Position numbers and translations under genes: made by a program. From Methylothermaceae bacterium (GTDB lineage: Bacteria; Pseudomonadota; Gammaproteobacteria; Methylococcales; Methylothermaceae): DNA of 24,000 nucleotides. Below are positions 124-13,001 of this stretch, piece after piece. Numbering within the stretch: position 1 is the first letter of the stretch; the number at the start of each line of letters is the position of its first letter. The notes beneath the pieces are model-generated. The model did not search any database, was not told the DNA's origin, and saw only the letters and a program-made list of their open reading frames with translations. The DNA lies in assembly GCA_026981855.1 (NCBI GenBank), contig JALSIB010000004.1, positions 1-24,000 of the forward strand, given 5' to 3'.

Positions 124-1968
124 GTGATGATATCCTTTTGTCTCTTTTCGTTTGGAGGCTTGCAGAAGCCGATGCGTTTGGAACGTTTGTTTTCCCATCC
201 TGTTTTTCAGTTGTTTCTGCTCGCGGCGGCAATCGCTTCGGTGTATGGCCATGTCTTCGATGTTCCCTTCTACCTGGATGACCATCTCTCAATCGAGCGC
301 AACGAAGCCATCCGCAGCCTGGATTTCGATAGCCTCTACCGTTACAGCCCGAAGCGGGTCGTGGGCTATCTCAGCTTCGCGCTGGATTACCAGCTGCATG
401 GGTTGGAGCCGGCGGGATACCATCTTTTCAATGTGATCGTCCATGTGCTTTCGGCGTGGATGGCATGGGGGCTGGCAGGAATGATCCTGATGACGCCGGC
501 CATGAAAGAACGCCTGCCCTCTTCCGTCGCCCGGGGATTTCCTCTTGTGGTCGCCTTGATTTTCGCCCTGCACCCGCTCCAGACCCAGGCGATCACTTAT
601 ATCACCCAGCGTTTGGCTTCGTTGGCCGCGCTTTGGTACCTGGCTGCCCTGGCATGTTATTTCAAGGCCCGATTGTCACTTGAATGGCCCAGACGGACGA
701 TCTGGTTCGCCGGCTGTGGTTTGGCCGCCGTGCTCGCCTTCCATACCAAGGAGAACACCGTGACCCTGCCATTGGCCGTTTTGTTGGCCGAGTGGGCGTT
801 TTTCGCCCGCGGCCGCTATCGGGTGTGGTTCTCGGTTGTATTGTTGACGGCAGTGGGGGCGGGACTTGTGCTTTTGTGGGCCATGACCCATGTGGATACC
901 CCGTTTTTCCGCTATCTGGACGGCGCGACCCGGGAAACCCGCTGGTTCGACCGCGGTGATTATCTAGCGGCACAGATGAAAGCCTTGTGGTGGTATGTCC
1001 GTCTGTTTTTCTGGCCGTTCGGTTTGCGCCTGGATTATGCCGCCCACCGGCCGCCGTCGTGGAGTGATCCGGAGGTGCTCCTGGGTGCCGGGGGGCATGT
1101 GCTGGTCATTTTGACGGCTATCGGCTTCTTGCGCCGTTCTCCCCTGCCGGCCTTTGGCGTATTGTTCTACTATCTCGCCCACGCGGTGGAATCTTCAGTG
1201 ATCCCGATCCGGGATCTGCTGTTCGAGCACCGTACCTATTTGCCCAATTTCGGCCTCGCCTTGACCGCCGCATGGGGGCTTTCGATTTGGCGCCCTGTCC
1301 GCCGGATTCAAAGTGGCTGGTGGCGCCATGCGGTCACAGGATGCCTGATTGTCGCACTGGGCTTTCTGACCTGGCAGCGCAATCAATTGTGGCGTGATCC
1401 GGTGGCTTTCTGGCAGGCCAATGTCCGACTCGAACCCGAATCCTATCGTCCCTGGATGGAACTGGGCAATGCGTATTTCGATACCGGCCAAATCGAGGAG
1501 GCGCGGCGTGTGGCTCGGGAACTGGTGACGGTGCTGGAGCGCAATGGCTGGCAGCCCGGCAGGGAAGAGCTGACCGAAACCGAAGTTGGGAATATCGCCC
1601 TCGCCTACTCCCTGGTTCGGCGGCATCGGGACGCGGCCAGGGTGGCGCGTCATTATCTGAAGGTTTTCAGATCTCCGGAAGTCAAGGCCGGTTTCCATCT
1701 GGTGTTGGGTGATGAAGCGTTAATGCGCAAGGACTATGAAACCGCCGAAAAGCATTATCGCAAGGCAGTGGCGCTTGAACCTGGGCGGCTCGATGGCTGG
1801 TTGTCCCTGGGTGAGGCGCTGGGGGCCCAGGGACGATTGCGGGAAGCCCGCCAGGCCTTCCAGGAAGTGCTGAAAAGGGAGCCGGACAATCCACGGGCGC
1901 GCAGAAAGTTGGCGTTGGCCGACTATCTGCTGCAGCGGAGGGGCGATGCGCCTCCTTCACCTCGGTAA
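124..1968 (+). CDS. Multi-pass membrane protein with C-terminal TPR repeats; TMTC/PMT-like (GT-C type) putative glycosyltransferase
   Basis: 614-aa ORF. The N-terminal ~430 aa are highly hydrophobic, with motifs typical of TMTC/PMT_2-like proteins (FYLDDHLSI, YHLFNVIVHVLSA, HPLQTQAITYITQR). The C-terminal ~180 aa are TPR-like (NAYFDTGQIEEA, YETAEKHYRKAVALEP, LGAQGRLREARQAFQEVLKREPDN). GGAG lies 6 nt before the ATG at 124. An alternative start at ATG 172 (MRLERLF...) is possible. Confidence 0.7.
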   Translation: MMISFCLFSFGGLQKPMRLERLFSHPVFQLFLLAAAIASVYGHVFDVPFYLDDHLSIERNEAIRSLDFDSLYRYSPKRVVGYLSFALDYQLHGLEPAGYHLFNVIVHVLSAWMAWGLAGMILMTPAMKERLPSSVARGFPLVVALIFALHPLQTQAITYITQRLASLAALWYLAALACYFKARLSLEWPRRTIWFAGCGLAAVLAFHTKENTVTLPLAVLLAEWAFFARGRYRVWFSVVLLTAVGAGLVLLWAMTHVDTPFFRYLDGATRETRWFDRGDYLAAQMKALWWYVRLFFWPFGLRLDYAAHRPPSWSDPEVLLGAGGHVLVILTAIGFLRRSPLPAFGVLFYYLAHAVESSVIPIRDLLFEHRTYLPNFGLALTAAWGLSIWRPVRRIQSGWWRHAVTGCLIVALGFLTWQRNQLWRDPVAFWQANVRLEPESYRPWMELGNAYFDTGQIEEARRVARELVTVLERNGWQPGREELTETEVGNIALAYSLVRRHRDAARVARHYLKVFRSPEVKAGFHLVLGDEALMRKDYETAEKHYRKAVALEPGRLDGWLSLGEALGAQGRLREARQAFQEVLKREPDNPRARRKLALADYLLQRRGDAPPSPR

Positions 1969-3085
1969 GTACTACCCCCCTTATGCGGGGGGGATGGAGC
2001 AATTTCTGGGAGACCTTTTGCCCGCACAGCAAAAGGAGGGTGTGGAGCCTGCGGCCCTGGTTCATGCCGCGGGGAAACCGGAACGCCGGACCGATCCCTT
2101 CCCGCTTTGGCGTGTCCCCGCATACGGCCGTCTGCTGTATGCGCCTGTCAGCCCCGCGTACCCATTGTGGCTCGAGCGGATGATCCAGGACTTCAATCCC
2201 GATGTATTGCACTTGCATCTGCCAAACCTGTCGGCTTTCTGGGCTTTGTCATTACCTCGGGCGCGCCGTATTCCCTGGGTGATCCATTGGCATGCCGATG
2301 TGGTTTCTGCCTCCATCGATACCCGGCTTTCGATGGCCTACCGGCTCTATCGGCCTTTCGAGCAAAGCTTGCTGAAACGCAGTGCGTGCATTGTCACAAC
2401 CTCCCCCCCTTATCGTGATTCGAGCGAGCCGCTACGGCCCTGGTTGGACAAAACCGAGGTCGTCCCTTTGGGACTCGATCCCCGGCGCCTGCCCTCACCG
2501 GATGAAGAAGATCTTGTCTGGGCGCAACAGCTTTGGGGAAAAGCACGGTTTCGATTGCTCTGTATCGGCCGTCTCACTTATTACAAAGGACATCGATTCC
2601 TGTTACGGGCCATGGAACAAGTCGATGAGGGGCGTTTGATCTGTGTCGGCAGCGGAGAGATGCTGCCCTCCTTGGCGAAGCAAGCGGAACGGTGTGGGGA
2701 GGGTGTCCTTTTCACCGGTTCCATGCCCGATGCGCGCCGCAACGCCCTGCTGGCCACCTGCGATGCCTTGGTATTGCCTTCAGTCGAGCGGACCGAAGCT
2801 TTTGGAGTGGTGCTGCTGGAAGCCATGGCTTATGGCAAACCCGTGATCGCCACGCGGGTGAAGGGGGCGGGAATGGGGTGGGTGGTGGAGCATGGAGTGA
2901 CGGGATTACTGGTGGAACCAGGCGATGTGGAGGCGTTTGTGGCGGCTCTCGAGACTATGCGACAATACCCGGCAAGCGTCAGGGAGCAAATGGGTCGGTC
3001 TGGACGGGAAAAATTGATGCGCGAATTCCACATTCAAAAGTGTGCCCACAGCCTTTCGAAGATCTATACCGCCTTATGTGTCTGA
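1946..3085 (+). CDS. Glycosyltransferase family 4 (GT-B, retaining type)
   Basis: 379-aa ORF with the typical N-terminus MRLLHLGKYYPPYAGGME. C-terminal EX7E-type motif region: LVLPSVERTEAFGVVLLEAMAYGKPVIAT. It overlaps the upstream gene by 23 nt. Confidence 0.85.
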   Translation: MRLLHLGKYYPPYAGGMEQFLGDLLPAQQKEGVEPAALVHAAGKPERRTDPFPLWRVPAYGRLLYAPVSPAYPLWLERMIQDFNPDVLHLHLPNLSAFWALSLPRARRIPWVIHWHADVVSASIDTRLSMAYRLYRPFEQSLLKRSACIVTTSPPYRDSSEPLRPWLDKTEVVPLGLDPRRLPSPDEEDLVWAQQLWGKARFRLLCIGRLTYYKGHRFLLRAMEQVDEGRLICVGSGEMLPSLAKQAERCGEGVLFTGSMPDARRNALLATCDALVLPSVERTEAFGVVLLEAMAYGKPVIATRVKGAGMGWVVEHGVTGLLVEPGDVEAFVAALETMRQYPASVREQMGRSGREKLMREFHIQKCAHSLSKIYTALCV

Positions 3086-3182
3086 GACCGGCGACAGTTG
3101 AGGAGACTCGCCGCCGCAGAACATGGCGGGGGGTGTTTCTTGCCCTGCCCTTCCCGACAGGGGGGCGAGCGTATACAATACC

Positions 3183-3545
3183 ATGACCTACCAGTTGACA
3201 TCCGCCCTTTTGGGAGGCGCCCTGGCAATCGTGATCCTGTGGTTGATCTACAAGGATCACATGCACACCCGCCATGCCTTTTGGTGGATGGCCGTCGCCG
3301 CAACGGTCTTCATTCTGGGTTTTTTCCCCCATCTGGTCGACTGGCTCGGTACCCGACTGGGAATCGCCTATCCACCGGTATTGGCGTTGGTGGCTGCCAT
3401 TGGGGTGCTGCTGATCAAAATCCTGATCATGGACATTGAAAACTCCCGCCAGGAACGTGTGCTGAGGCGATTGATCCAGCGAATCGCCATTCTGGAAGCG
3501 GATCTTAAAAAATCGAACCGAACCAATCCACCCCACAAAAAATGA
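3183..3545 (+). CDS. Small membrane protein, DUF2304-like (glycosyltransferase-associated)
   Basis: The ORF is 3123..3545; the likely start is ATG 3183 (MTYQLTSALLGGALAIVILWLIYKDHMH). It has three predicted TM helices followed by an amphipathic C-terminal helix (RLIQRIAILEADLKK). Its position directly after a GT gene matches the DUF2304 context. Confidence 0.6.
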   Translation: MTYQLTSALLGGALAIVILWLIYKDHMHTRHAFWWMAVAATVFILGFFPHLVDWLGTRLGIAYPPVLALVAAIGVLLIKILIMDIENSRQERVLRRLIQRIAILEADLKKSNRTNPPHKK

Positions 3546-3622
3546 CTCGACACAAGCGTGCCCCTGCTTTGGGTACGGTTGTGAACGGTACGATTGGCGA
3601 GAAGAAGGATGGTTTGCGAAGA

Positions 3623-3698
<76 letters not shown>

Positions 3699-3720
3699 AT
3701 TTCTCCCATTCCCAGCGCCC

Positions 3721-3749
3721 ATTTACCCAAATTTTCCGAAATTTGTCAA
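3721..3749 (-). promoter_or_regulatory. Candidate sigma70 promoter for tRNA-Thr
   Basis: On the minus strand: TTGACA (3749..3744), a 17-nt spacer, then GTAAAT (3726..3721), about 22 nt upstream of the mature tRNA 5' end. The -35 is perfect; the -10 is weak. Confidence 0.3.
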
Positions 3750-4212
3750 CCATCCGCCATTTCGCCGCCCATCCCGATCAGGCACTCGAACTCGTTCTGA
3801 GCTGATCCCTTCCGACCCGGCAGGAACAGGACCGAATCCTGCGGTCCCGGACACGGCTGCGCGCAAGTCACCGGCACCACCCATCCGCTGCCACCTTTGC
3901 CTCCATTCCCGCGTAGATCGGGCCATCAGACTACGACCTCACCCTGCCTACGCCACAGTGGCAATAGATCTGCCGAGGGGGTGGGTCTCCGGGGTGAAGT
4001 TAGATGACGTCGTCCTGCATTCTGACCCCATGGCGTTGGGCTGCCAAAGCTCGGTTAGCCCCAGCACTAAACACACTAGCCGCGATGGCCCTCCTGTCCG
4101 CCTTCAACCTGGAACGGATGGCAGCGCTAAGGCACCAAAGTTTGCCAGAGAAAGCGGTCAGGATCTCTAGCAAACTTAGCTCCTGATAGATTCCTTATTA
4201 CCAAAGATAATA

Positions 4213-5139
4213 CTACATATCAATGCTATCCAGCGCCGATTTTATCGCATTCTCGTCAGGACGTACATATTCCAAGGTGACACGAACATCTGTATGCCCA
4301 AGCAAATATTGCAATATTTGCAGATCCACGCCGGGCAAGGCTGCCAGTCTTGTCGCAAATGTATGTCTCAGTCGATGAGGGCTGATCTTGACTTTCATAG
4401 CTTTGGACAAACGGCGGAAAAATCCAAAAACTTGGGTCGGTGTCATCTCACTACCCGCATAGGCGTCATTGAACAGCTGAATTCGGAAGACCTGTTCATT
4501 ATGCAGCTGTTTCAATGTTTTATGAGAGTATTTTTTACTCATCTCCGCCAAGTAACGAAGCTCCTTCTTGATCCGTCTTGGTATCGGAATCAGCCATTCC
4601 CTGTGGCTCTTGCTTCCTACATAGCTCATCAGGATCGTACCACGATCAAAGTCTATATCTCGCCAGCGCAAGGTCACCAATTGTTGTGTTCTCATGCCGG
4701 TGTGGAGCAAAGTCTTGAAGACAATGAGCCAAAACCAAGCCGGTTTGAATTTATCGGTACCATCACATTTTTCAAGATATTGGATCGCTTCCAGTATGGT
4801 TGGGGAAGAAAGCGTCTTCTTGACCTTTCCACCTTTCATGGGAGCGCGTACCTTTTGAAACGGATTTTCCGTCACGTATTCCTGCTCTATAGCATAGTTC
4901 CACATTGCACGCAATGTTCTTTGATACGTGTGCCACGTTGTTTCCGTTGCTCTTTTCAGCACATCATCTCTCCACGAGATCACCAGATCCAATTTAACCT
5001 CATCGATGTCTTTTGCCCGAGTATCATTGACGAATGCATTGACCACATTCCGGTAACTGATTTCAGTTCTTGGCCTCAAGGCGCTAACACGCAAATATTC
5101 CTCACAAAGTTCCTCTGGTGACACCAGATACTCCTTCAT
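4213..5139 (-). CDS. Tyrosine recombinase / site-specific integrase (XerC/D-like size)
   Basis: 308-aa ORF with the catalytic signature intact: TGMRTQQLVTLRWRDI (Arg), SPHRLRHTFATRLA (H-x-x-R), LLGHTDVRVTLEYV (His, Tyr). It has an N-terminal SAM-like core-binding region. Confidence 0.9.
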   Translation of the reverse strand: MKEYLVSPEELCEEYLRVSALRPRTEISYRNVVNAFVNDTRAKDIDEVKLDLVISWRDDVLKRATETTWHTYQRTLRAMWNYAIEQEYVTENPFQKVRAPMKGGKVKKTLSSPTILEAIQYLEKCDGTDKFKPAWFWLIVFKTLLHTGMRTQQLVTLRWRDIDFDRGTILMSYVGSKSHREWLIPIPRRIKKELRYLAEMSKKYSHKTLKQLHNEQVFRIQLFNDAYAGSEMTPTQVFGFFRRLSKAMKVKISPHRLRHTFATRLAALPGVDLQILQYLLGHTDVRVTLEYVRPDENAIKSALDSIDM

Positions 5140-5175
5140 CCCAATTAAGAATTGACCATATGAGTTTACATGGAA

Positions 5176-6042
5176 TCAGCGCCCCAAATATACAGAGGTA
5201 ATCTGCTCTCTGTTATGACCCATTTCACGGGATACTTCAAGGCGAGCCTGATGCTCGATAATGCGCTCCCCAGGGGTCAATTGACTTTTCGATGGGCCTC
5301 CCTCTGCGGGAGATTTCCATCCTGTCAGCTCTTCGTAGCGACGCTGGGCATAGGCATGTCTAAGCCCATGGACCTTCGAGAGTCCCGCGTTCTTACATTG
5401 ACGTTCGTAGACCTTAACCTGCTGCACGTAGGATCTGCTTTGAGGAATTAGTGATCCACGGCCAGCCAGACTACGTGCTTTTCTCAATACTTCTCGTTGT
5501 GAGTCTGTGCGAATCGGTACTTCACGACCGCGCCCTCCCTTGCACCAGCTAGGTTTGAGAACAATTTTATCCTCCTTGATGGCATAAGAGGGTTGAAATT
5601 TAATCGCTTCTTCTCTCCTCAGGCCGAATTCTCGTTGCAATTCCAAACTGACTCGCACATAGGGATCGGTGACCTTTGCCAGTTGCTCTTCGTATAACCG
5701 GATCGCCTTGTTTGCCTCGGCAATCACTTGCCTGCGTGGAATGTCATAATGATCATTGCTCTTGGCAATCAACGCCGGCTTGCCCACTTTTTGTGCCCAC
5801 CAACGAAGCACCGTCATCCGATTTTTGAGTGTAGCGGGGGACAATCCTTCTTCCTTCCAGCGTTGCAGCAGAGCATTCACATGGCGCCCCTTAAAACTTT
5901 TGGCACGCATTTTCCGATATCCCATCTCATGCAGCTGATTGGCGCACAGCTGCAATATATGGTGTCGTTGAGCTCGAGTGGCGTATGATCCTTCTGGATA
6001 TCTCTGACACAAATTCTTCAGGTCGTAATTCAAGTCACGCAT
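5176..6042 (-). CDS. Second tyrosine recombinase, Phage_int_SAM_2 + Integrase_1-like family
   Basis: 288-aa ORF with motifs GLRREEAIKF (Arg), HGLRHAYAQRRY (H-x-x-R) and GHNREQITSVYLGR (Tyr). GGAAGGG lies upstream of the ATG at 6042. It sits 36 nt upstream of, and is co-oriented with, the 4213..5139 integrase. Confidence 0.8.
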   Translation of the reverse strand: MRDLNYDLKNLCQRYPEGSYATRAQRHHILQLCANQLHEMGYRKMRAKSFKGRHVNALLQRWKEEGLSPATLKNRMTVLRWWAQKVGKPALIAKSNDHYDIPRRQVIAEANKAIRLYEEQLAKVTDPYVRVSLELQREFGLRREEAIKFQPSYAIKEDKIVLKPSWCKGGRGREVPIRTDSQREVLRKARSLAGRGSLIPQSRSYVQQVKVYERQCKNAGLSKVHGLRHAYAQRRYEELTGWKSPAEGGPSKSQLTPGERIIEHQARLEVSREMGHNREQITSVYLGR

Positions 6043-6436
6043 TATTTCCCTTCCGGCATCAAAACACCATCATCGAAATCGAAATTTAACGCTTAGTTTT
6101 AATGGTCCACTCTCCGGTCATGCTCGCATGACGGAAAGTACCTTCCCGGTCTTGGGACCCTGCTCTCTGCTAAATTCCCTGATCTGACTCGTGCATGACA
6201 GCCGGTGTCTCCTGTTGGGACTGCCGGACGTGTCGGCATTAACGCTCGGTTTCCATAATTCACCTCCTTTGTTTGTTGAACATAAAAAATGGAGGCGCAC
6301 ACGAACGCCGGGGTGAGCGATTTTCCCGGAACGCTGCCGAGGTGGCATGATGCGCCGATTTCCTGGCTAAGAAGAGGTATCCCCAAATCGAGGGATAGCA
6401 TATGAAGCATGGAACCTAAGGCTCCTGGATGAAGAT

Positions 6437-6666
6437 GCCCGAACAGGCGCTTAAGCCTGGTCATCGGATTTTTCGGGCCCGCGATGACGAGGGTGCAGGC
6501 CTATTGCCTGCGGGGGTACAGCTTTGACCCAAGCTGCCAAGGGCTAACGCGGGTTCAATTTTGTACGGATTTAATCCGTATTGTCAAGTATTGTCGTCCC
6601 ACCCCTCATTCTCCCTTGGATTGGGCCGCTGTCCCTACCGCACTTCGTGTGGTAGGGACAGCGGCC
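6437..6666. other. Hairpin-dense structured non-coding segment (candidate oriT / recombination site / structured RNA)
   Basis: Consecutive stem-loops: 6437-6443/6472-6478 enclosing 6444-6459 (caggc-gcttaa-gcctg); 6495-6511 (gcaggc-ctatt-gcctgc); 6519-6536 (cagctt-tgaccc-aagctg); 6565-6579 (acggat-tta-atccgt). A tandem direct repeat GTATTGTC lies at 6578-6585 and 6588-6595 (10-bp phase), followed by a 20-bp stem at 6624-6666. No convincing ORF is present. Confidence 0.4.
6624..6666. repeat. 43-nt near-perfect inverted repeat (20-bp stem, 3-nt loop)
   Basis: ggccgctgtccctaccgcac-ttc-gtgtggtagggacagcggcc. There are 19 Watson-Crick pairs plus one position that is G-U on a plus-strand transcript and C-A on a minus-strand transcript. 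No U-tract follows on either strand. Confidence 0.85.
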
Positions 6667-7075
6667 AACTCCCTGTCCAGGGGGGTATCATACGGCGACG
6701 TTGTTGCATAATTCCCAAGTTCCAGATGCCGGCGCCTAAGGGGAGGCAGCATTCAGCGAGGGGTTGGTAGTGCGGGCGGTGTTCCATCTGCCACTTCGGG
6801 CCTTAGAAAGGGTGGGAACGGGAGAGCAGGCACCCATCGTCGTTCCCAGGTGGAAACACCTTCTTCCGCCTCAAGATGTTGTTCGGTGACCGGCTCAGAA
6901 ATCGCCGAATAACCCTCGGTATGCCTGAATCCGTGCTGCTGACTGCATGACTACATGAAAGCTGAAAACGCCAGGAGAGACCCATTCATGCCGGAGTTAT
7001 GCAACAAAGCCTGTTGGCGACAGACTTTTTCCAGTACATGATTACCACACCGATTTCGAGAAGGAAACCCACAAA

Positions 7076-8101
7076 ATGAAAGCGTTTCTCTCCTCGCTCC
7101 CACAAATTTTTCGCCCAAAAAATGAGACGACTTTTCCGTCTGACAGGTCGAAAAAATTATCGCCTGCTGAATCTGAGTTAGCTAATATTGCTGCTGTTAC
7201 TGACGAAGTTTTTTATAAATTTTACCGACCTCCACTCATGAATTTTTTACGCCTATTTGAAACGGAAATCGACATTTATACACGTCTTTTTCAATCACTT
7301 CGGTTACGGGAGAGCGTCATTTTACCTTCTGGTTCCGATCCTCATATTGTGGCAGAACGCCGAGACGCATGGACTTACGGCGTCTTTTTGGCAGCATTAT
7401 TTGTTGATGCCAACCACTGGCCAGAATTACTCCAAGATCGATGTCCGTGGGGAGAGGACTTCACGTCGAAAACTGGTATCGCGAACAGGCACCCGCTATC
7501 CGGGTTCTGCATCGCATTATCATTGGTGCCAACGGCGGGATTGACCTGGTTATGGCAAGACGCAGAACTCTGGACAGAATGGGTAGGAGCGTTGCTAGGA
7601 GAATCACGGGGTAGCGGAGAAATTTTACGCATCGTCCATACCGCTGTTGGGCGGAAAACCTCTAAACCAGATCAACCGGAGTCTCGAGATTCGTCACTGC
7701 CGCAGCCCGGTATGGCAGATATAAATGAGGATACAATTCATGAATTAAAGGCCAACAATGAGAACGATAGGGACGAAAACGAAATTCCGGAAAGAATCTG
7801 TAACGATCCATTCCTGGATTGGCTGAAACGTGAGATAACAGCAGGCCGTATAAAGGTAGATGAAACTGGATTAGTGTACCAAACCGACGCCGGCTTATTA
7901 TTGAGAAGCCCAGAAATATTCAAGCGCTTCGCCGATGAAATCGGTGAGGACTGGCATCGGATACAAAATCGGTTTCTGCGAAGAAGATTTCATTGCAAAC
8001 GTGATGAGGGATCAAATATCCATCGGCTGGACATCAACGGAAAACAAGTCAGCGGAATATTGTTGTCCAAGAAATCAGTTTTGCAAATGCTGGATCTGTA
8101 A
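7076..8101 (+). CDS. TraI_2 / TraI_2_C (DUF1528)-like protein; short MOBH-relaxase-related protein without recognisable HD/His-cluster motifs
   Basis: 341-aa ORF. The C-terminal ~100 aa (DPFLDWLKREITAGRIKVDETGLVYQTDAGLLLRSPEIFKRFADEIGEDWHRIQNRFL...NIHRLDINGKQVSGILL) match my recollection of the TraI_2_C domain of PFGI-1/ICEclc-class relaxases. The N-terminus has only faint similarity (FYKFYRPPL, LPSGSDPH, WTYGVFLAALFVDANHW). An acidic low-complexity linker is present (NNENDRDENE). Confidence 0.7.
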   Translation: MKAFLSSLPQIFRPKNETTFPSDRSKKLSPAESELANIAAVTDEVFYKFYRPPLMNFLRLFETEIDIYTRLFQSLRLRESVILPSGSDPHIVAERRDAWTYGVFLAALFVDANHWPELLQDRCPWGEDFTSKTGIANRHPLSGFCIALSLVPTAGLTWLWQDAELWTEWVGALLGESRGSGEILRIVHTAVGRKTSKPDQPESRDSSLPQPGMADINEDTIHELKANNENDRDENEIPERICNDPFLDWLKREITAGRIKVDETGLVYQTDAGLLLRSPEIFKRFADEIGEDWHRIQNRFLRRRFHCKRDEGSNIHRLDINGKQVSGILLSKKSVLQMLDL

Positions 8102-8133
8102 GAAAAAAAGGAGAACCGGTTCAGTGAGAAAAA

Positions 8134-8703
8134 CTATGGGCGTATCGTCAATCTACCCCCCGGTAAATACCGATACAAGGTCGATGGCGCCACGCCTAAT
8201 TTTCTGGCCACTTCCTCCACGGTGATCTCGGGATTAGCCAGAAGCGTCCTGGCCATCTGCAAATCCCGTTCGGTCAGCGCTGGCGGCCGGCCGCCTTTCC
8301 TTCCCCTGGCGCGGGCTGCTTCCAGGCCCGCACGGGTGCGCTCGCGGATGATGGAACGCTCGAACTCGGCCAGCGCGCCGAAGATGTGAAACACCAACCG
8401 TCCGCCCGGTGTCGTGGTATCGATGTTCTCGGTGAGCGACTTGAAGCCGATGCCCCGCTTCTCCAGGTCCTCCACGGTTTCGATCAGCTGCCTGAGGGAC
8501 CGGGCCAGGCGGTCCAGTTTCCAGACCACCAGCACGTCGCCTTCCCGCAGGTAGTCCAGGGCCGCCTTCAGTTGCGGCCGGTCCCGTTGGGCGCCGGAGG
8601 CCTTTTCGATGAAGATGCGCTCACAGCCGGCAGCTTCCAGGGCGTCGGTCTGGAGCCTGGGATTCTGGTCCTGGGTGGAAACGCGGGCGTAGCCGATCAG
8701 CAT
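8134..8703 (-). CDS. Serine recombinase (resolvase / DNA invertase family)
   Basis: 189-aa ORF beginning MLIGYARVSTQDQN (catalytic Ser motif). Other motifs: VVWKLDRLARS, and a C-terminal HTH ending STLYRYLP. A GAAGGGGGG Shine-Dalgarno lies upstream of the ATG at 8703. Confidence 0.92.
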   Translation of the reverse strand: MLIGYARVSTQDQNPRLQTDALEAAGCERIFIEKASGAQRDRPQLKAALDYLREGDVLVVWKLDRLARSLRQLIETVEDLEKRGIGFKSLTENIDTTTPGGRLVFHIFGALAEFERSIIRERTRAGLEAARARGRKGGRPPALTERDLQMARTLLANPEITVEEVARKLGVAPSTLYRYLPGGRLTIRP

Positions 8704-8718
8704 GATGAATGCCCCCCT

Positions 8719-8958
8719 TCAGGCGGCTTGAGGCCAGTATAGGATTTCGACTTCCGTCCGATTCCGCCTGGCGTTCTGGACCAGGCCTTCCAATTGCCTG
8801 GCGGTTTCCTCACCGATCCAACTTTCGCCACATTGGCGGCACACTTTGGCGGGAACCTTGCGGACCACGATAAGGCAAGACTCCAGATCGACAGCGAACG
8901 TGGTCTGCCCCGGTTCTTTATCCCCTCCACAAAGGGGACAGCGATCAATCGAATTCAT
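8719..8958 (-). CDS. YgiT-type zinc-ribbon protein (MqsA N-terminal-domain-like), putative antitoxin
   Basis: 79-aa ORF with CPLCGG...CRQCGE (a four-Cys zinc ribbon) and no HTH domain. Its start overlaps the stop of the upstream DUF4258-like gene (ATGA at 8955-8958). Confidence 0.75.
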   Translation of the reverse strand: MNSIDRCPLCGGDKEPGQTTFAVDLESCLIVVRKVPAKVCRQCGESWIGEETARQLEGLVQNARRNRTEVEILYWPQAA

Positions 8959-9287
8959 GACTTCCTTGTTTTCCAGTCCATTTCGAACTTGTCCGGGCTA
9001 GGACGGTAAGCGGTGATGACATGACAGATCCCGTTGTTCTGCTCATCGAATGCCACGACCACATGCAAAGGATCCTCGCCGACGATATGTAATAACAGGC
9101 CGGCGGGAACCGGATAGGCGTCGGGATAGAATTCCACAATTTCGCCTTCCAGAATGGCCTGTTCCACCGATTCCATGCGGATGCCGCTCGTCAACAAACG
9201 CTCCAGTGCATGTTGCTTCCATTCGATGCTGCCAGCGCGAACCGCCTGGCGCACATTTCGCAACCAGGCTTCCCAATCCACTGCCAT
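8955..9287 (-). CDS. DUF4258-like protein, putative toxin of a type II TA pair
   Basis: 110-aa ORF. WKQHALERLLTSGIRMESVEQAILEGEIVEFYPDAYP...LHVVVAFDEQNNGICHVITAYRP resembles the DUF4258 family. It lies in a toxin-first arrangement with a zinc-ribbon partner. Confidence 0.7.
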   Translation of the reverse strand: MAVDWEAWLRNVRQAVRAGSIEWKQHALERLLTSGIRMESVEQAILEGEIVEFYPDAYPVPAGLLLHIVGEDPLHVVVAFDEQNNGICHVITAYRPSPDKFEMDWKTRKS

Positions 9288-9500
9288 ATTGCGGCTCTCC
9301 GAAAACTCATGGACATCATCCCTTATTAAGGATCAGGTTTCAAGGGACTGTTTTGATAGATGAAAGGCAGGCCAAAAGTGGGGTCCAGGAACCGATATGG
9401 GAATCTCCCGAAAACGGCCGTTTTTGAGAAAATCCAGGCATGTGGCCACAGATCAAGAAATTCCGATCGAAACTGGATACCACAGGAGACCGTTGGCAAT

Positions 9501-9535
9501 TTATCCACAAATTCTGGGGATGGATTTGTGGATGA
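9501..9535. promoter_or_regulatory. Palindromic site containing a perfect DnaA-box 9-mer and an inverted near-consensus copy
   Basis: TTATCCACA lies at 9501-9509. TGTGGATGA at 9527-9535 is the reverse complement of TCATCCACA (8/9). The 9-bp arms tccacaaat / atttgtgga are separated by 11 bp. The site is in a ~370-bp non-coding stretch. Confidence 0.35.
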
Positions 9536-9629
9536 CGGCTCTGGATCCTTGTGGTACCCCATGCCGTTCAGTTTGGCTAAACTTTCACCACTCACTTCCG
9601 CCGCCGATCCGATTCCCTCTATAGAGAGG

Positions 9630-9655
9630 ACCTGCCGGGGGAGCCCCCGGCAGGT
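9630..9655. terminator. GC-rich hairpin, possible terminator
   Basis: acctgccgggg-gagc-ccccggcaggt (an 11-bp GC-rich stem). It lies 26 nt downstream of the minus-strand stop at 9681. There is no clear U-tract, so rho-independent function is uncertain. Confidence 0.35.
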
Positions 9656-9680
9656 TCGGTAAACATTGCCACCTGAATGC

Positions 9681-9839
9681 TCAGGCGGATTTCAGCTTCT
9701 TCATTTCCTCGGCCAGTGTCCACAAGGCCCGGTTCAGGGCAACATTACCGTCGATCCCTTGAATCGGCCGCGTGGTCACACGCTTCCCTTGTCGGTTTCG
9801 ACCCCGAAGCCCGCCGCGGACCAGATTTTCCTGAACCAC
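9681..9839 (-). CDS. Possible small ribbon-helix-helix-like ORF (GTG start), or a remnant of a decayed gene
   Basis: The reading frame is open from 9899 down to the stop at 9681 with no ATG. A GTG at 9839 would give 52 aa: VVQENLVRGGLRGRNRQGKRVTTRPIQGIDGNVALNRALWTLAEEMKKLKSA. The pattern of a basic arm, a short strand and a helix is reminiscent of CopG/Arc proteins. No Shine-Dalgarno is present. Confidence 0.2.
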   Translation of the reverse strand: MVQENLVRGGLRGRNRQGKRVTTRPIQGIDGNVALNRALWTLAEEMKKLKSA

Positions 9840-9948
9840 ATTGAAGGTGGTCCATAAATTCCCGCGAGCGGTTATAGGCCAGATAGAGAATTTTCCGTTT
9901 CAGGCGGGCTGCAACCCTCGATGATAGCCAACTACTGGTTGGTCAAAT

Positions 9949-10149
9949 TCACAGTGGATTGCGACAGCTCTTGCGGTTTCGGATCTCGTCCGGCGTGGGG
10001 CGTTCCCGGACGAAGCGGAACGATCCGTCGGACCAGCATTCCAGGTATCCCCATTCCACGTCCCACTCCGATTCGCCCGGCCGGGGCGGGCGCTCCCACC
10101 AGGGCTCACGGCTGATCAGCACAGGTTCGTCACGTTGTTTGGATGACAT
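9949..10149 (-). CDS. Hypothetical small protein (66 aa), divergent from the KfrA-like gene
   Basis: ATG-started ORF with reasonable GC3 usage (MSSKQRDEPVLISREPWWERPPRPGESEWDVEWGYLECWSDGSFRFVRERPTPDEI...). No family was recognised. Confidence 0.3.
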   Translation of the reverse strand: MSSKQRDEPVLISREPWWERPPRPGESEWDVEWGYLECWSDGSFRFVRERPTPDEIRNRKSCRNPL

Positions 10150-10161
10150 GGAGCGGTCTGT

Positions 10162-10190
10162 GTGTAATAATGTAGTTTACGTAATTACAC
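10162..10190. promoter_or_regulatory. Inverted repeat in the divergent promoter region (candidate operator)
   Basis: gtgtaat-N15-attacac with a central tacgta palindrome, 19 nt upstream of the KfrA-like ATG (10209). KfrA proteins are known autoregulators that bind inverted repeats at their own promoter. Confidence 0.3.
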
Positions 10191-10208
10191 TAACACGAAA
10201 TCGTTTTC

Positions 10209-10886
10209 ATGGCCAGAACGGGAATCACCAAAGACCAAGTTTTCGAAGCAGCCCGGGAAATCCGGGACGAAGGTGGCACGGTGACCATCGCCGCTGTCCG
10301 AAGCCGACTGGGAAACACCGGCAGTTACTCGACCTATTCCCGTCATCTGGCTGAATGGCGCAAGCAGGAATCCTCGGAAAATCATGCGCCTCCCACACCT
10401 GCTTCGGTGGAAGCTATTGCCAGACGCTTATGGTCCGAGGCCTGGCGGCTGGCTTCCGAGTCCCTGGAGAATGCCAGCCGGCAATGGGAGAAGGAAAAAA
10501 AGCATCTGGAGTTCGAACTGCATAATCTGGCCATCGAGCTGGACCAATCCAAGCAGGCGTTCAACGAAGCGATGGACAAGCTGCAAAGCACAATGAAAGG
10601 ACTCATGGAAAAGACGCTGGCTTTCGAGCACCTGAAGGACGATCACGAAAAGCTCAAGAAGATCCATGAAGCCACTTTGAACAGAGTGGGTAAGCTGGAA
10701 CGGGACAATGCCGCCTTGCTCCAGAAGCTCGATTCGGCCGTCCGGGACATCACCAGACTGGAAAACGAACTTGCCGAGTCCCGGACCCAGGAACGGCGTG
10801 CGCTGAAAGAAGCCGCGGCACTGCGGGGGCAGCTGGAATCGTTGGCAAAAACAAAGGTCAGGCCCTTGAGGAGGAAGAAGTCATGA
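10209..10886 (+). CDS. KfrA_N-like DNA-binding protein with a long coiled-coil tail
   Basis: 225-aa ORF. The N-terminus MARTGITKDQVFEAAREIRDEGGTVTIAAVRSRLGNTGSYSTYSRHLAEWRK fits the KfrA N-terminal DNA-binding domain pattern. The remainder is heptad-rich coiled coil (LEFELHNLAIELDQSKQAFNEAMDKLQ...). Confidence 0.75.
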   Translation: MARTGITKDQVFEAAREIRDEGGTVTIAAVRSRLGNTGSYSTYSRHLAEWRKQESSENHAPPTPASVEAIARRLWSEAWRLASESLENASRQWEKEKKHLEFELHNLAIELDQSKQAFNEAMDKLQSTMKGLMEKTLAFEHLKDDHEKLKKIHEATLNRVGKLERDNAALLQKLDSAVRDITRLENELAESRTQERRALKEAAALRGQLESLAKTKVRPLRRKKS

Positions 10887-11107
10887 ACAAGTATTCAGTG
10901 CCTACTCATCCAGATCCGGCCGAGTCAGCCATGTTGGGCGTCATCGTGGAAGACATGCTGGCCGAAGCCGACAAACATGGTCAGGCACAGTGCATCTTCC
11001 GTCGGTACCGCATCCGTGCCCATCGTCTTGCCAGAAGCCGTTGGCGCCTGATGATCGGCGACGAAAACGGCACCCTGGTAGATGCTGATATCCACGTCGA
11101 TGCCTGA
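10883..11107 (+). CDS. Hypothetical protein (74 aa), translationally coupled to the KfrA-like gene
   Basis: Its ATG overlaps the upstream stop (ATGA at 10883-10886). No family was recognised. Confidence 0.5.
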   Translation: MNKYSVPTHPDPAESAMLGVIVEDMLAEADKHGQAQCIFRRYRIRAHRLARSRWRLMIGDENGTLVDADIHVDA

Positions 11108-11351
11108 CTCCGGCAGCTGGTACTGGATTCACCCACACAAGCGCCGCTGGTACCTGCTTCTGCTCGACCAGGATCTGTTTGGCGACTGGGTGCTCCTGCG
11201 CGCCTGGGGAAGTCTTGACAGCCGGTGGTGTGGCAAGAAAAAGGAAATCCTGGATGATACCGGGAACGCCGAAAGGCTGGTGAAAAAGATATGCCGGACC
11301 CGCCAGCGGCGCGGATATTATTTGGTTCAACCACCAAAGAGACAACGCTGA
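11100..11351 (+). CDS. Small WGR-domain protein
   Basis: WYWIHPHKRRWYLLLLDQDLFGDWVLLRAWGSLDSR...AERLVKKICRTRQRRGYYLV matches the WGR-domain pattern (YY-L-L-QPDLFG-W-L-REWGRIG...KRRRGY). The probable start is ATG 11100, overlapping the upstream stop; the ORF track starts at 11082. Confidence 0.7.
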   Translation: MPDSGSWYWIHPHKRRWYLLLLDQDLFGDWVLLRAWGSLDSRWCGKKKEILDDTGNAERLVKKICRTRQRRGYYLVQPPKRQR

Positions 11352-11358
11352 TTTCAAG

Positions 11359-11517
11359 GTATTCGTCGCCTCTCTGTCGGAAACCCTACAGCGGGTAATC
11401 GGCTATTACAGCCTCAGCGCGAACAGCCTGGATGCCGATGATCTGCCCGAATGGTTGAGCAGGCGATTACCCAGGCAGCTGGTTCCGGCGGTCCTGCTGG
11501 GAAGGCTGGCCACGGTG
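11359..11517 (+). pseudogene. Internal fragment of a GNAT-family (TacT/KacT-like) acetyltransferase toxin gene
   Basis: The frame of ORF 11455..11880 extended upstream reads VFVASLSETLQRVIGYYSLSANSLDADDLPEWLSRRLPRQLVPAVLLGRLA. This is the characteristic central block of GNAT toxins (GYYSLSA...LP...RRLPR-P-VPA-LLGRLAVD). No N-terminus and no acetyl-CoA Q/RxxGxG/A motif follow, and similarity is lost near 11517. Confidence 0.55.
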
Positions 11518-11550
11518 GAGACGGGTGCGGAATTCCGAGATCCACACCCA

Positions 11551-12141
11551 TCAAAGTGTCCGGCTACCCCGGCAGGATGGAAACCGCACGCAGCCCCAAA
11601 ATTCTGTCCCGGCCCGCTCTCCCCCGCGCACGGTCCGGACGGCCATCCGGGCGCCGCAACGGGGACAGCGGGGGCCTTCCGCCGGGTAGCGGGGGATTTC
11701 GAGATGGGATACGAGTTCGAGAAGGCGCCGTCCGTCGATCAGTTCCAGGCCGTTTTGCCGCCCGAAGATCCAGGCGGGACGGGTGTAGCGGCCGCTGGCG
11801 ACGAGGAAACCGCCCTCGGCCCGGCGGGCGGCCACCACGCCCAGCAGCTCGCGGACTTCACAGATACCGACCTGCCGTGAGCGCCAGCGTTTGCACTGGG
11901 CGACCCAGATTTTCCGGCCGCGCCTGAGCAGCAGATCGATACCGCCGTCCGCCCCCTCCCCTGTTTCGGCGGCCCAGTACCCCATCCGGCGGAACATTTC
12001 GCCGCTCAACGCCTCGAAAGACCGCCAGTCGAGCGCCCGGAGAGAGGCCAGGGACCAGGAGGTTCCGCCTCCTCCGTCCGGCCGTGGTTGTCGTGGCCTG
12101 GCCGGGCTTATATTATCCCTCACTGTATGTCTGTCGGACAT
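11551..12141 (-). CDS. Mrr_cat-type restriction endonuclease domain fused to a topoisomerase-type C4 zinc ribbon
   Basis: 196-aa ORF. WRSFEALSGEMFRRMGYWAAETGEGADGGIDLLLRRGRKIWVAQCKRW fits the Mrr catalytic core pattern (D...D-x-QCK). The C-terminal CPRCGARMAVRTVRGGERAGTEFWGCVRFPSCRG fits zf-C4_Topoisom. Confidence 0.85.
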   Translation of the reverse strand: MSDRHTVRDNISPARPRQPRPDGGGGTSWSLASLRALDWRSFEALSGEMFRRMGYWAAETGEGADGGIDLLLRRGRKIWVAQCKRWRSRQVGICEVRELLGVVAARRAEGGFLVASGRYTRPAWIFGRQNGLELIDGRRLLELVSHLEIPRYPAEGPRCPRCGARMAVRTVRGGERAGTEFWGCVRFPSCRGSRTL

Positions 12142-12277
12142 CGCAATCCATCCTGAAGAAAGGGGGCGTCATCAAGAAAGTACTCGAAAAGAAGGATCTG
12201 GAGTCTTCTATCTTGCTTACCGGTCCTACAAGGATGGAAGCAATACCGATTTTCCAACTCATATCGGCGGAAAATCA

Positions 12278-12403
12278 CTGCTGGACGAGTTGGAAAAACT
12301 TAGGCAGCTGCTCGATTCCGGCGCGATCACGCAGGAAGAATACGATACGCTCAAGGCGAAACTCCTCTCGCAAATCGACCCTTCCCTGGCAAAATCCGAA
12401 TAA
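12278..12403 (+). CDS. SHOCT-domain ORF with unresolved start (possible pseudogene)
   Basis: LLDELEKLRQLLDSGAITQEEYDTLKAKLLSQI is a clear SHOCT motif. The frame has no ATG or GTG between the divergent Mrr start (12141) and the motif; only CTG 12278/12281 and TTG 12290 are present. An ATG at 12234 lies in a different frame. Confidence 0.35.
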   Translation: MLDELEKLRQLLDSGAITQEEYDTLKAKLLSQIDPSLAKSE

Positions 12404-12427
12404 CAGACGAACACTGGAGGTGACATC

Positions 12428-12988
12428 ATGTGGTTGCTCGTACTCGCCATCGCATCGGTGCCCCTGACCGTGGCCGCCATAGGGATGACGGCCGTGGCCG
12501 GCTGGCAGGGCGGCTTCCGCCGCCGGGGTGTCGCCTGGCTGCTGTGGGGAACGCTCTTGCTGGTTTGTCTGGCCATAGCCGGCATCGGTTTGTCGTTCGG
12601 CTTCGACCTGGATCTGGCGTTGCTGGCCCCCCTGGCCGGGACGCCGCTGGCTTTCCTGATGTCCATGGCCGCGCTGGCCGCCATGAATCTCCACCGGATC
12701 GCCAGGGCGCTGGGGTGGCTCTTCCAGACCACGCGCCGCCTGGAGGCGCGGGCGCAAACCCTGGACAGGAAGGCCCTCGCCCTGCGCCTGGGGACGTTCC
12801 TGCTGGCCGCGGCCAGGCTGTCCCTGGAAGTGGTCGCCACCCTTGGGGTCGCGGTGCTGAAGGCCGGGTTTGAGTCTCTTGGGGAGGAGTCGGAAGAGCT
12901 CATAGAGTCTAGGCGGCATATAACCATTATTCCTATTGCCAAATTGGGAACAGCCTATATTGACGGCGACGGTAACATTGAGCTATGA
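12428..12988 (+). CDS. Hypothetical integral membrane protein (186 aa)
   Basis: GGAGG lies 7 nt upstream of the ATG at 12428. About four hydrophobic helices are followed by an amphipathic region. The last ~25 codons are abruptly AT-rich. No family was recognised. Confidence 0.6.
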   Translation: MWLLVLAIASVPLTVAAIGMTAVAGWQGGFRRRGVAWLLWGTLLLVCLAIAGIGLSFGFDLDLALLAPLAGTPLAFLMSMAALAAMNLHRIARALGWLFQTTRRLEARAQTLDRKALALRLGTFLLAAARLSLEVVATLGVAVLKAGFESLGEESEELIESRRHITIIPIAKLGTAYIDGDGNIEL

Positions 12989-13001
12989 CTATAACCTTGA
13001 A

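Follow-up and report, generated by a model that had tools for sequence, protein, structure and literature searches.

A candidate MOB_M-type relaxase, a conserved inverted repeat and a motif-less TraI-like protein at the probable integration end of an MPF-G integrative and conjugative element

The 24,000-nucleotide stretch of Methylothermaceae DNA analyzed here (the window) contains an AT-rich block between a tRNA-Thr gene and an MPF-G type IV secretion system (T4SS). The block is probably the integration and DNA-processing end module of an MPF-G (PFGI-1/SPI-7-like) integrative and conjugative element (ICE) located beside tRNA-Thr, with a MOB_M-type relaxase. It encodes a 308-residue Xer-like tyrosine recombinase, a 288-residue tyrosine-recombinase-like protein and a 341-residue TraI-like protein; the last two are separated by a non-coding stretch of 1,033 bp, 6043–7075 (Table 1). 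The window corresponds to bases 15–24014 of a longer metagenome contig (ena:ERZ27262642:k141_567063, 35,359 bp), which was read beyond the window to contig position 33,929 (stretch L004, 13297–33929). The integrase-side junction is present in the contig, and the opposite ICE end is beyond 35,359 bp. A first-pass annotation of the window had proposed that the block takes the place of the classical pair of a large integrase and a MOBH relaxase. This holds up, and neither a MOBH relaxase nor a P4-type integrase was found on the contig up to position 33,929. The same annotation described two tandem tyrosine recombinases. Both are present, yet they are not equivalent, one being the integrase and the other a probable relaxase.

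The 288-residue protein is a probable MOB_M-type relaxase, a candidate whose membership rests on Pfam family identity and gene context. Its PF12835 match scores 51.6 bits against a cut-off of 23. R141, K167, H224, R227, H275 and Y284 are invariant in the homologue alignment and make up a complete tyrosine-recombinase active site, with the RK(H/Y)RH residues and the Tyr nucleophile of MOB_M. PF12835 is the "INT_DTR_like" signature that the Burrus laboratory used for the atypical relaxase MpsA of SGI1 (PMC10484663). MpsA, MobK and TcpM are the three tyrosine-recombinase-like relaxases that have been studied, and for MpsA and MobK experiments showed that transfer depends on them (PMC6414798, PMC8152469). 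A 2026 preprint gives the family the name MOB_M and reports that standard tools miss it; 96% of these relaxases lie near an integrase, 44% are in MPF-G ICEs and 56% in integrative mobilizable elements (IMEs) (bioRxiv 10.64898/2026.01.13.699239).

The gene family is linked to conjugation genes. A scan of one genome per species found more than 523 PF12834/PF12835 relatives, and the counts over 80 loci given in this paper refer to the best 80 of these. In 21 of the 80, all from Gammaproteobacteria including Sedimenticola selenatireducens and 55–61% identical to the window protein, the homologue heads, on the same strand, an h199-h258-SLT-DUF2859-T4CP-DtrJ operon, where T4CP is the type IV coupling protein. 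In these loci the operon continues into RAQPRD…DUF3438. The same operon is present in the contig of the window, as a divergent series h199-h235-h400-h258-h186-SLT-h158-DUF2859-T4CP-DtrJ. By tblastn, homologues were also found on 234 plasmids, many of them of 4–10 kb, and the homologue gene directly precedes T4CP on Vibrio pSIO1 and on a Pleionea plasmid. Linkage to conjugation genes is therefore seen in the T4CP operon, on two plasmids and with the MPF-G T4SS of the window. That this T4SS belongs to MPF-G is indicated by its signature proteins, TIGR03755 (424 bits, cut-off 270) and TIGR03751 (105 bits, cut-off 78) in the profile search of window proteins, and by the T4CP and DtrJ-like genes of L004. 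The remaining MPF-G genes were found on the part of the contig outside the window.

Two of these homologous loci deserve description. Plasmid pSIO1 (4.9 kb) holds the inverted repeat described below, the PF12835 gene, a small open reading frame (ORF), T4CP, one more small ORF and nothing else; it is typed as non-mobilizable by MOB-suite and looks like a minimal mobilisation plasmid of the PF12835 system. The cultured isolate Sedimenticola selenatireducens DSM 17993 (loci L047 and L063) has two PF12835-headed T4CP operons, each with an upstream repeat.

We infer that the inverted repeat at 6618–6672 is a candidate origin of transfer (oriT). The repeat belongs to a covarying class with the core GTCMCTAC…GTAGKGAC. 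Repeat and leader were compared over the upstream regions of 79 homologous genes. The core GTC(A/C)CT(A/G)(C/G)…(C/G)(C/T)AG(T/G)GAC was present 450–840 bp upstream of the start codon in 60 of these 79 loci, against 2 of 79 shuffled sequences. There are about 67 repeat sites in 1.33 Mb of loci, and 60 of them fall within the 79 kb of upstream regions. On pSIO1 the repeat (L009 1373–1395) is 540 bp upstream of the PF12835 gene. The outer stem, which was left out of the search pattern, also covaries, with compensatory changes at 7 of 14 pairs. Pairing is kept in 96.9% of the outer-stem cells, compared with 84.9% after shuffling and 27–59% with slid partners. Between 6 and 25 nt separate the conserved cores, a variation that favors a hairpin or cruciform over a recombinase crossover site of fixed spacing.

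The repeat also marks the edge of a conserved module. The 400 bp between repeat and gene are 75–97% identical in many locus pairs, whereas the 400 bp beyond the repeat are usually less similar and often at background level, with a few exceptions. Such a position fits an oriT. SGI1 and pIGRK too have the oriT upstream of their relaxase genes, and between the two SGI1 encodes an essential small RNA (PMC9299015). A scan of viral contigs for the repeat returned nothing, and a literature search with the core sequence returned unrelated papers only. A second match to the loose pattern, GTCCCTGG…CCAGGGAC, occurs at 1803–1834 inside the host-side TPR gene; its outer arms do not pair, and it is therefore probably due to chance.

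The first-pass annotation had described about 1 kb of hairpin-dense non-coding DNA, and the measurements bear this out. The sequence of nt 6440–6700 folds at −63.9 kcal/mol, compared with −40.5±3.7 for shuffled sequences (z=−6.3; 0 of 200 as low). A 121-residue ORF at 6099–6464 was rejected as a gene, since frame-shifting indels interrupt it in relatives of 88–95% identity and the gene caller of the source did not call it. The part next to the 288-residue gene, 6043–6617, forms a leader whose conservation equals or exceeds that of coding DNA, and the three-way alignment revealed no conserved ORF in it. The leader has a 98-nt invariant stretch within 6120–6237 and a promoter-like TTGACA-18-CAAAAT at 6587->6558, with the perfect palindrome TACGGATTTAATCCGTA (6564–6580) in the promoter spacer. 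A terminator-like hairpin follows at 6309->6294, which together with its T-run spans 6309->6284, then a strong Shine-Dalgarno-like AAGGAGGTGA at 6269->6260 and a mini-ORF of 5 codons at 6256->6239. The AAGGAGGTGA motif is kept in the leaders of 22 other homologous loci. Beyond the repeat class and this motif, no sequence similarity was found between the leader of the window and those of the 79 homologous loci. A metagenome scan with a 24-mer from the invariant stretch returned only two JGI contigs, both already known. The layout of the leader recalls sgm-sRNA between mpsA and oriT of SGI1. On the other side of the repeat, the intergenic part 6673–7075 presumably holds the promoter of the traI-like gene.

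The 341-residue protein had been thought to retain just its TraI_2_C domain. The C-terminal domain is indeed clear (PF07515, 57.5 bits against a cut-off of 27.3, residues 245–335), but residues 1–195 are colinear with the TraI_2/TIGR03760 relaxase domain (E=9.5e-13), a sub-threshold match without the catalytic motifs, so that the protein is a full-length member of a motif-less family. It misses the curated relaxase cut-offs by a wide margin (TIGR03760, 48.3 against 161.4; NF041494 MobH, 43.9 against 200; PF07514, 17.6 against 23.9). The short proteins tested likewise fall under the NCBIfam relaxase cut-offs, the exception being P0007, in which the motifs are partly retained; the score of a true relaxase is 355 bits. 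In the alignment, true MOBH proteins show SExHHH..GGLLxHxLE (the alternative 3H motif) and AALLHDxGK (the HD motif). The 341-residue protein has a gap at the 3H position and AALFVDAN at the HD position, where the His is missing. The protein and its short homologues are also without the segment of about 100–150 residues that separates the N-domain from the C-terminal domain in full-length MOBH relaxases. Cleavage by GGI TraI requires both HD and 3H (PMC6736028). Their absence makes it very unlikely that the 341-residue protein is a nicking enzyme.

Its architecture without 3H and HD, and its relationship to known structures, place the protein with the "MOBH3" type. The profile of the motif-less family, with the window protein included, matches PDB 3KQ5 at E=7.5e-33 and 2IPQ at E=4.2e-10, and the 341-residue sequence alone matches 3KQ5 at E=9.5e-4. 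Heilers et al. placed 3KQ5 and 2IPQ in a "MOBH3" clade without both motifs, for which an alternative function was suspected (PMC6736028). The protein resembles this clade (3KQ5 of Coxiella; 2IPQ, which is STY4665 of SPI-7) in the combination of a motif-less TraI_2-like N-domain with TraI_2_C, but it is only 22–28% identical to other short motif-less homologues. In a library of 1.84 billion representatives it has three full-length relatives at 39–48% identity, and the further matches there are many proteins of 300–410 residues and ordinary MOBH relaxases of 570–620 residues. Among 5.8 billion proteins, no close relatives were found except the window's own copy and one fragment, and none was found in 185,579 species genomes. 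The contigs of the short TraI-like proteins P0006, P0009 and P0068 are too short to inform on gene context.

The 308-residue recombinase is the probable ICE integrase. It scores under the cut-offs of the XerC, XerD and XerA models, and weak NCBIfam matches to the gamma-mobile-trio proteins GmtY/GmtZ (E 1e-4 to 3e-3) were judged non-significant. The relatives of the whole block are the contigs L011, L012, L013, L014 and L003. The integrase is 85–88% identical to those of L011 and L013, and 78–88% across the block relatives. It is the last gene before the tRNA. The tRNA-Thr gene, whose 5′ end points toward the integrase, adjoins the integrase in L011, L013 and L014 too, and contig-to-contig similarity ends precisely at the tRNA 3′ end, which suggests that the attachment site is in or beside tRNA-Thr. 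Nt 3699–3753 of the spacer are common to L011, and window nt 3623–3753 match L011 nt 1184–1314 at 95% (BLAST). In L011 the integrase comes directly after this matching stretch. The window has 453 bp (3754–4206, about 58% GC) extra relative to L011, and this segment had no match in any fetched locus. The order in the L011 region 1137–1314 is ParA, complete tRNA-Thr, integrase, which matches the attP junction of a circular Citrobacter element. Together with the end of similarity at the tRNA 3′ end, this order would fit an ICE that carries the whole tRNA-Thr gene as attP and recombines inside it.

The block is foreign in composition to both the ICE and the host flank. The first-pass annotation had noted from a few lines that it is richer in AT than its surroundings, and the computed values confirm this, with 48.5% GC in 4190–8133 and 61.2% in the remaining window. 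None of 122 other segments of the same length (3,944 bp) falls below 57.7%. GC at third codon positions is 50% for the integrase gene, 50% for the mobM-like gene and 43% for the traI-like gene, compared with 64–82% for all other genes, the host-side genes on the left included. Tetranucleotide frequencies of the block correlate with the T4SS region at r=0.20, and those of the other segments at 0.84–0.88. The edges are sharp, at about 4190–4210 and about 8133. A DNA search of the block against plasmids gave a single weak match of 375 bp, and the block was therefore rejected as a known plasmid module.

L011 and L013/L014 also show the order integrase, PF12835 gene, about 1 kb of non-coding DNA and TraI-like gene, and in each of them tRNA-Thr adjoins the integrase; in L011 and L012 the same serine resolvase (88–91% identical) also follows the traI-like gene. 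Conservation along the block is uneven. Nucleotide identity is 88% over 4207–6666 and again 88% from nt 8152, but in between, starting at the 3′ edge of the repeat and ending with the traI-like gene, the sequences can not be aligned; the homology with L011 and L013 breaks at that edge. The 288-residue protein is 92–96% identical across the block relatives. The TraI-like protein is only 39–49% identical and falls into at least four allele classes between flanks of 88–96%; L003, the fifth contig, has the allele class of the window at 86% identity. Judged by these identities, the traI-like half is replaced or very fast diverged, with one boundary at the repeat. The foreign composition and the breakpoint at the repeat edge together support modular exchange of the block, and the earlier idea of a horizontally swapped end module agrees with the 88% identity up to the repeat, the 39–49% in the TraI-like protein and the 88% again in the resolvase. 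T4SS contigs 94% identical to that of the window come from the same samples.

Several known systems share parts of this arrangement. The window resembles the MOB_M systems (MpsA/MpsB of SGI1, MobK of pIGRK, TcpM of pCW3) in the RKHRH-Y catalytic domain and in a GC-rich, repeat-bearing candidate oriT a few hundred bp upstream with an integrase close by, and the 288-residue protein shares the MpsA-type signature PF12835. Conserved non-coding DNA lies between gene and oriT as in SGI1, where the essential sgm-sRNA is located. The SAM-like N-domain is fused in the window protein, whereas it is the separate MpsB in SGI1 and is absent from MobK and TcpM. The element of the window has its own MPF-G T4SS, while the MOB_M comparison systems borrow one. 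The likeness to MpsA, MobK and TcpM is one of family and description, and the activity of the window protein is predicted.

SPI-7/SGI-4-type ICEs are close in gene content. A Klebsiella pneumoniae MPF-G ICE end at tRNA-Phe, found via tblastn, has in order a PF12834/PF12835 protein (213 bits), anti-restriction/DUF3085/ArdC genes, a 429-residue motif-less TraI_2/TraI_2_C protein, a 266-residue PF00589 integrase and the tRNA. The circular Citrobacter pRHBSTW-00903_3 and Pantoea pNBBC01-4 have the same gene series, and on the far side of attP from the integrase the Citrobacter element has ParA, an SPI-7-type DnaB and ParB. A search of E. coli genomes with the Klebsiella ICE end gave no match. SGI-4 was reported to carry two Xer-like recombinases and the traI-like ORF86 beside a helicase, at the end opposite parA (PMC6543542). 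As in the window, these ICEs have the PF12834/PF12835 protein, the motif-less TraI-like protein and a small PF00589 integrase at the integrase end, together with an MPF-G T4SS, and ParA lies across attP. Their three genes are co-directional over 7–23 kb, with ArdC, anti-restriction and UvrD-helicase genes interspersed, whereas those of the window lie within 4 kb and the relaxase-like and TraI-like genes diverge across the repeat region. The TraI-like protein is 341 residues in the window and 429–590 in the SPI-7/SGI-4-type ICEs, and the tRNA orientation is reversed. The block is thus a compacted, rearranged version of a known ICE end. The combination, which the first-pass annotation did not recognise as described, is not new: the trio occurs in the Klebsiella, Citrobacter and Pantoea elements of SPI-7/SGI-4 type (PMC6543542), and MOB_M relaxases beside an integrase in MPF-G ICEs have been reported (bioRxiv 10.64898/2026.01.13.699239).

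Two further comparisons concern single proteins. CtiC of SGI1, a decoy, is like the 341-residue protein a non-catalytic MOBH derivative in an element with a MOB_M relaxase, and has a domain of the TraI C-terminal winged-helix type. CtiC has 84 residues, consists of the C-terminal domain only and targets MobI of the helper plasmid; the likeness is by description. The window protein differs in having 341 residues with an N-domain, in an element with its own T4SS. The environmental MPF-G ICEs, the 21 loci that include Sedimenticola selenatireducens DSM 17993, share with the window the protein family at 55–61% identity, the repeat class and the genes of the downstream operon. In those loci the gene heads the T4CP operon, and no TraI-like gene was found within 10 kb. 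In the window, by contrast, the gene is at the ICE end near the integrase, and the MPF operon is inverted.

These comparisons suggest how the module may work. The 308-residue Xer-like recombinase would integrate and excise the element at the tRNA-Thr site. The 288-residue protein would be the MOB_M-type relaxase, comparable to MpsA (SGI1) or MobK (pIGRK), and would nick at an oriT whose core would be the inverted repeat, about 590 bp upstream of its gene. The conserved leader between them may be regulatory and possibly encodes an RNA. The 341-residue protein, predicted to be catalytically dead and not to nick by the MOBH mechanism, would most likely be an accessory of the relaxosome or a T4CP-docking factor, or else act in specificity or competition. 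The module would be exchanged horizontally as a unit, which would account for its low GC, and its traI-like half would have been replaced repeatedly with the recombination boundary at the repeat.

Several points weigh against this assignment. The 288-residue protein has an N-terminal SAM-like domain (PF12834, residues 1–88) as ordinary recombinases do, unlike MpsA and MobK, and thus departs from the absence of a core- or arm-binding domain described for MpsA, MobK and TcpM, which is not a formal criterion; the SPI-7-type homologues carry the PF12834 domain as well. The link to MOB_M was drawn from Pfam family and gene context. Some homologues are on small plasmids without T4CP (p250), where a role in multimer resolution is equally plausible. 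In the contig of the window the gene is outside its canonical place ahead of the T4CP operon, and the ICE runs past the contig end, so a true MOBH relaxase could lie elsewhere. The tRNA 5′ end toward the integrase is a non-classical geometry, opposite to the Klebsiella case. A TraI-like gene was found within 10 kb in none of the 80 other homologous loci, all environmental, which shows that the partnership is not general and points to its being specific to certain lineages.

The 288-residue protein might instead be an ordinary site-specific recombinase, which resolves multimers at the repeat or serves as a second subunit with the 308-residue integrase, while the real relaxase lies beyond the contig. 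We regard this as unlikely. The full active site combined with a SAM-like domain of core-binding type, the homologues on small plasmids without transfer genes such as p250, a repeat core that is palindromic and conserved like a recombinase binding site, and the incompleteness of the ICE in the contig all speak for it. On the other hand, a core spacer of 6–25 nt misfits a fixed crossover region of 6–8 bp, and in 21 of 80 genomes the T4CP operon begins with the gene, which also adjoins T4CP on two plasmids. A homologue of the 308-residue integrase is within 10 kb in just 10 of the 80 loci, which speaks against an obligate pairing of the two recombinases, and a serine resolvase gene already adjoins the block.

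That the 341-residue protein is a functional minimal MOBH relaxase, with both tyrosine recombinases serving only integration and excision, is hardly credible. It lacks the 3H motif, the HD His and the segment between the two domains, is far under both curated relaxase cut-offs, and would have to cleave without residues that GGI TraI needs (PMC6736028). Its sequence identity is 39–49% among elements whose repeat is nearly identical. The colinearity with TraI_2 and TraI_2_C and the divergent transcription from a hairpin-rich region, a usual layout of relaxase and oriT, are the features that such a relaxase would explain. The block could also be a nested, independent IME that is inserted in the ICE, or in tandem with it, at tRNA-Thr and parasitises the MPF-G T4SS, as the first-pass annotation had considered. 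Foreign composition with sharp edges fits such an IME, and the block has all that an IME needs, an integrase, a relaxase and an oriT; IMEs hold the 56% share of MOB_M relaxases cited above, and what follows the block in L013 is cargo and defence genes, for at least 10 kb and without a T4SS. This explanation, too, is unlikely. Direct repeats flanking the 4-kb block were not found, only imperfect chance matches of 15–16 nt, and no partial duplicate of the tRNA or its flank exceeds 13 nt in the window, L004, L011, L012 or L013. In L011 and L012 conservation of the block extends to the resolvase and further right-hand backbone, and the contig offers no second relaxase candidate for the T4SS. The ParA-tRNA-integrase order of L011 corresponds to what the circular Citrobacter element shows at attP, the junction of a whole SPI-7-type ICE, and the homologues of the 288-residue protein are part of the same MPF-G gene set in 21 genomes. 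An end module of the ICE itself with a MOB_M-type relaxase remains the explanation that we prefer.

A wider scenario is offered tentatively. In this lineage of MPF-G ICEs nicking may have passed to a tyrosine-recombinase-like enzyme, and the ancestral MOBH relaxase may survive as a catalytically dead, fast-evolving partner that sets specificity or competes, as a T4CP adaptor or a CtiC-like decoy. The GTCMCTAC…GTAGKGAC hairpin might then be the nic-proximal oriT repeat of a large MOB_M clade and a hotspot of recombination at ICE ends. Only very recently was it recognised how widespread MOB_M relaxases are, and standard tools still label them integrases, so that elements like that of the window look relaxase-less or "non-mobilizable". 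Comparative data back the repeat as a candidate oriT of a large environmental clade of such relaxases, and searches with it could reveal hitchhiker islands that carry only an oriT. The locus and its relatives also indicate that motif-less "MOBH3" proteins, a functional puzzle since 2009, accompany MOB_M relaxases at the ends of ICEs and are in some cases hypervariable, which makes the adaptor or decoy hypothesis directly testable. The locus further exemplifies modular exchange of the ICE end that serves integration and processing, and the breakpoint of that exchange is at the putative oriT. What it adds is the conserved hairpin class, the hypervariable TraI-like gene and the breakpoint at the repeat.

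Table 1. Features of the window, with coordinates, strand and supporting evidence
Feature	Coordinates	Strand	Evidence or remark
TPR, GT4 glycosyltransferase and DUF2304 genes	124–3545		host side, left of tRNA
tRNA-Thr(CGU)	3623–3698	(−)	ARAGORN; Rfam 75.7 bits
Spacer from tRNA to integrase stop	3699–4212	none
AT-rich block under study	4190–8133
Xer-like tyrosine recombinase, 308 aa	4213–5139	(−)	PF00589 91.6 bits + SAM_5
Tyrosine-recombinase-like protein, 288 aa	5176–6042	(−)	PF12834 67.5 bits + PF12835 51.6 bits
Conserved non-coding leader	6043–6617	(−)	three-way alignment, identity profile, scan
Inverted repeat, 26-nt arms, 3-nt loop	6618–6672		core GTCCCTAC…GTAGGGAC; candidate oriT repeat, left edge of variable segment
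Variable intergenic part	6673–7075		not alignable to L011 or L013
Motif-less MOBH-like ("MOBH3"-type) protein, 341 aa	7076–8101	(+)	degenerate TraI_2 N-domain, linker, TraI_2_C
Serine resolvase, 189 aa	8134–8703	(−)	PF00239 169.6 bits; 64% GC, just outside AT-rich block
Serine resolvase, DUF4258 toxin pair, KfrA, Mrr-like nuclease	8134–12141
MPF-G type IV secretion cluster (TraG_N, TIGR03755, TraU, TraC, TIGR03751, DUF3438)	from 13002 onward

An Rfam scan of nt 3500–8300 matched the tRNA alone. Right of the block follow genes of a plasmid-like kind for maintenance and defence, namely the serine resolvase, a 79-residue gene with a DUF4258 toxin-like gene (8719–9287), KfrA at 10209–10886 and an Mrr_cat nuclease-like gene at 11551–12141. 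The MPF operon (RAQPRD…TraG_N) is divergent from the T4CP operon in the ICE of the window. In L034 and L081, the only two loci long enough to show this, it comes after DtrJ and shares its strand. The ICE of the window appears rearranged, with the PF12835 gene displaced to the integrase end.

The relatives differ in what surrounds the block. A 278-residue gene and a D12-class methyltransferase come after the resolvase in L011 and L012, and in L011 also DUF932. In L012 a DDE_Tnp_1 transposase gene (2090–3268) stands just upstream of the TraI-like gene, in the place expected for integrase, PF12835 gene and repeat, and this element is probably disrupted by an insertion sequence. L013, a contig read in part, has at least 10 kb of cargo and defence genes 3′ of the block, with no T4SS within those 10 kb. 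Its cargo at 9756–14348 includes a UvrD-helicase gene beside an OLD/AAA-TOPRIM gene (Gabija-like) and a type I restriction subunit.

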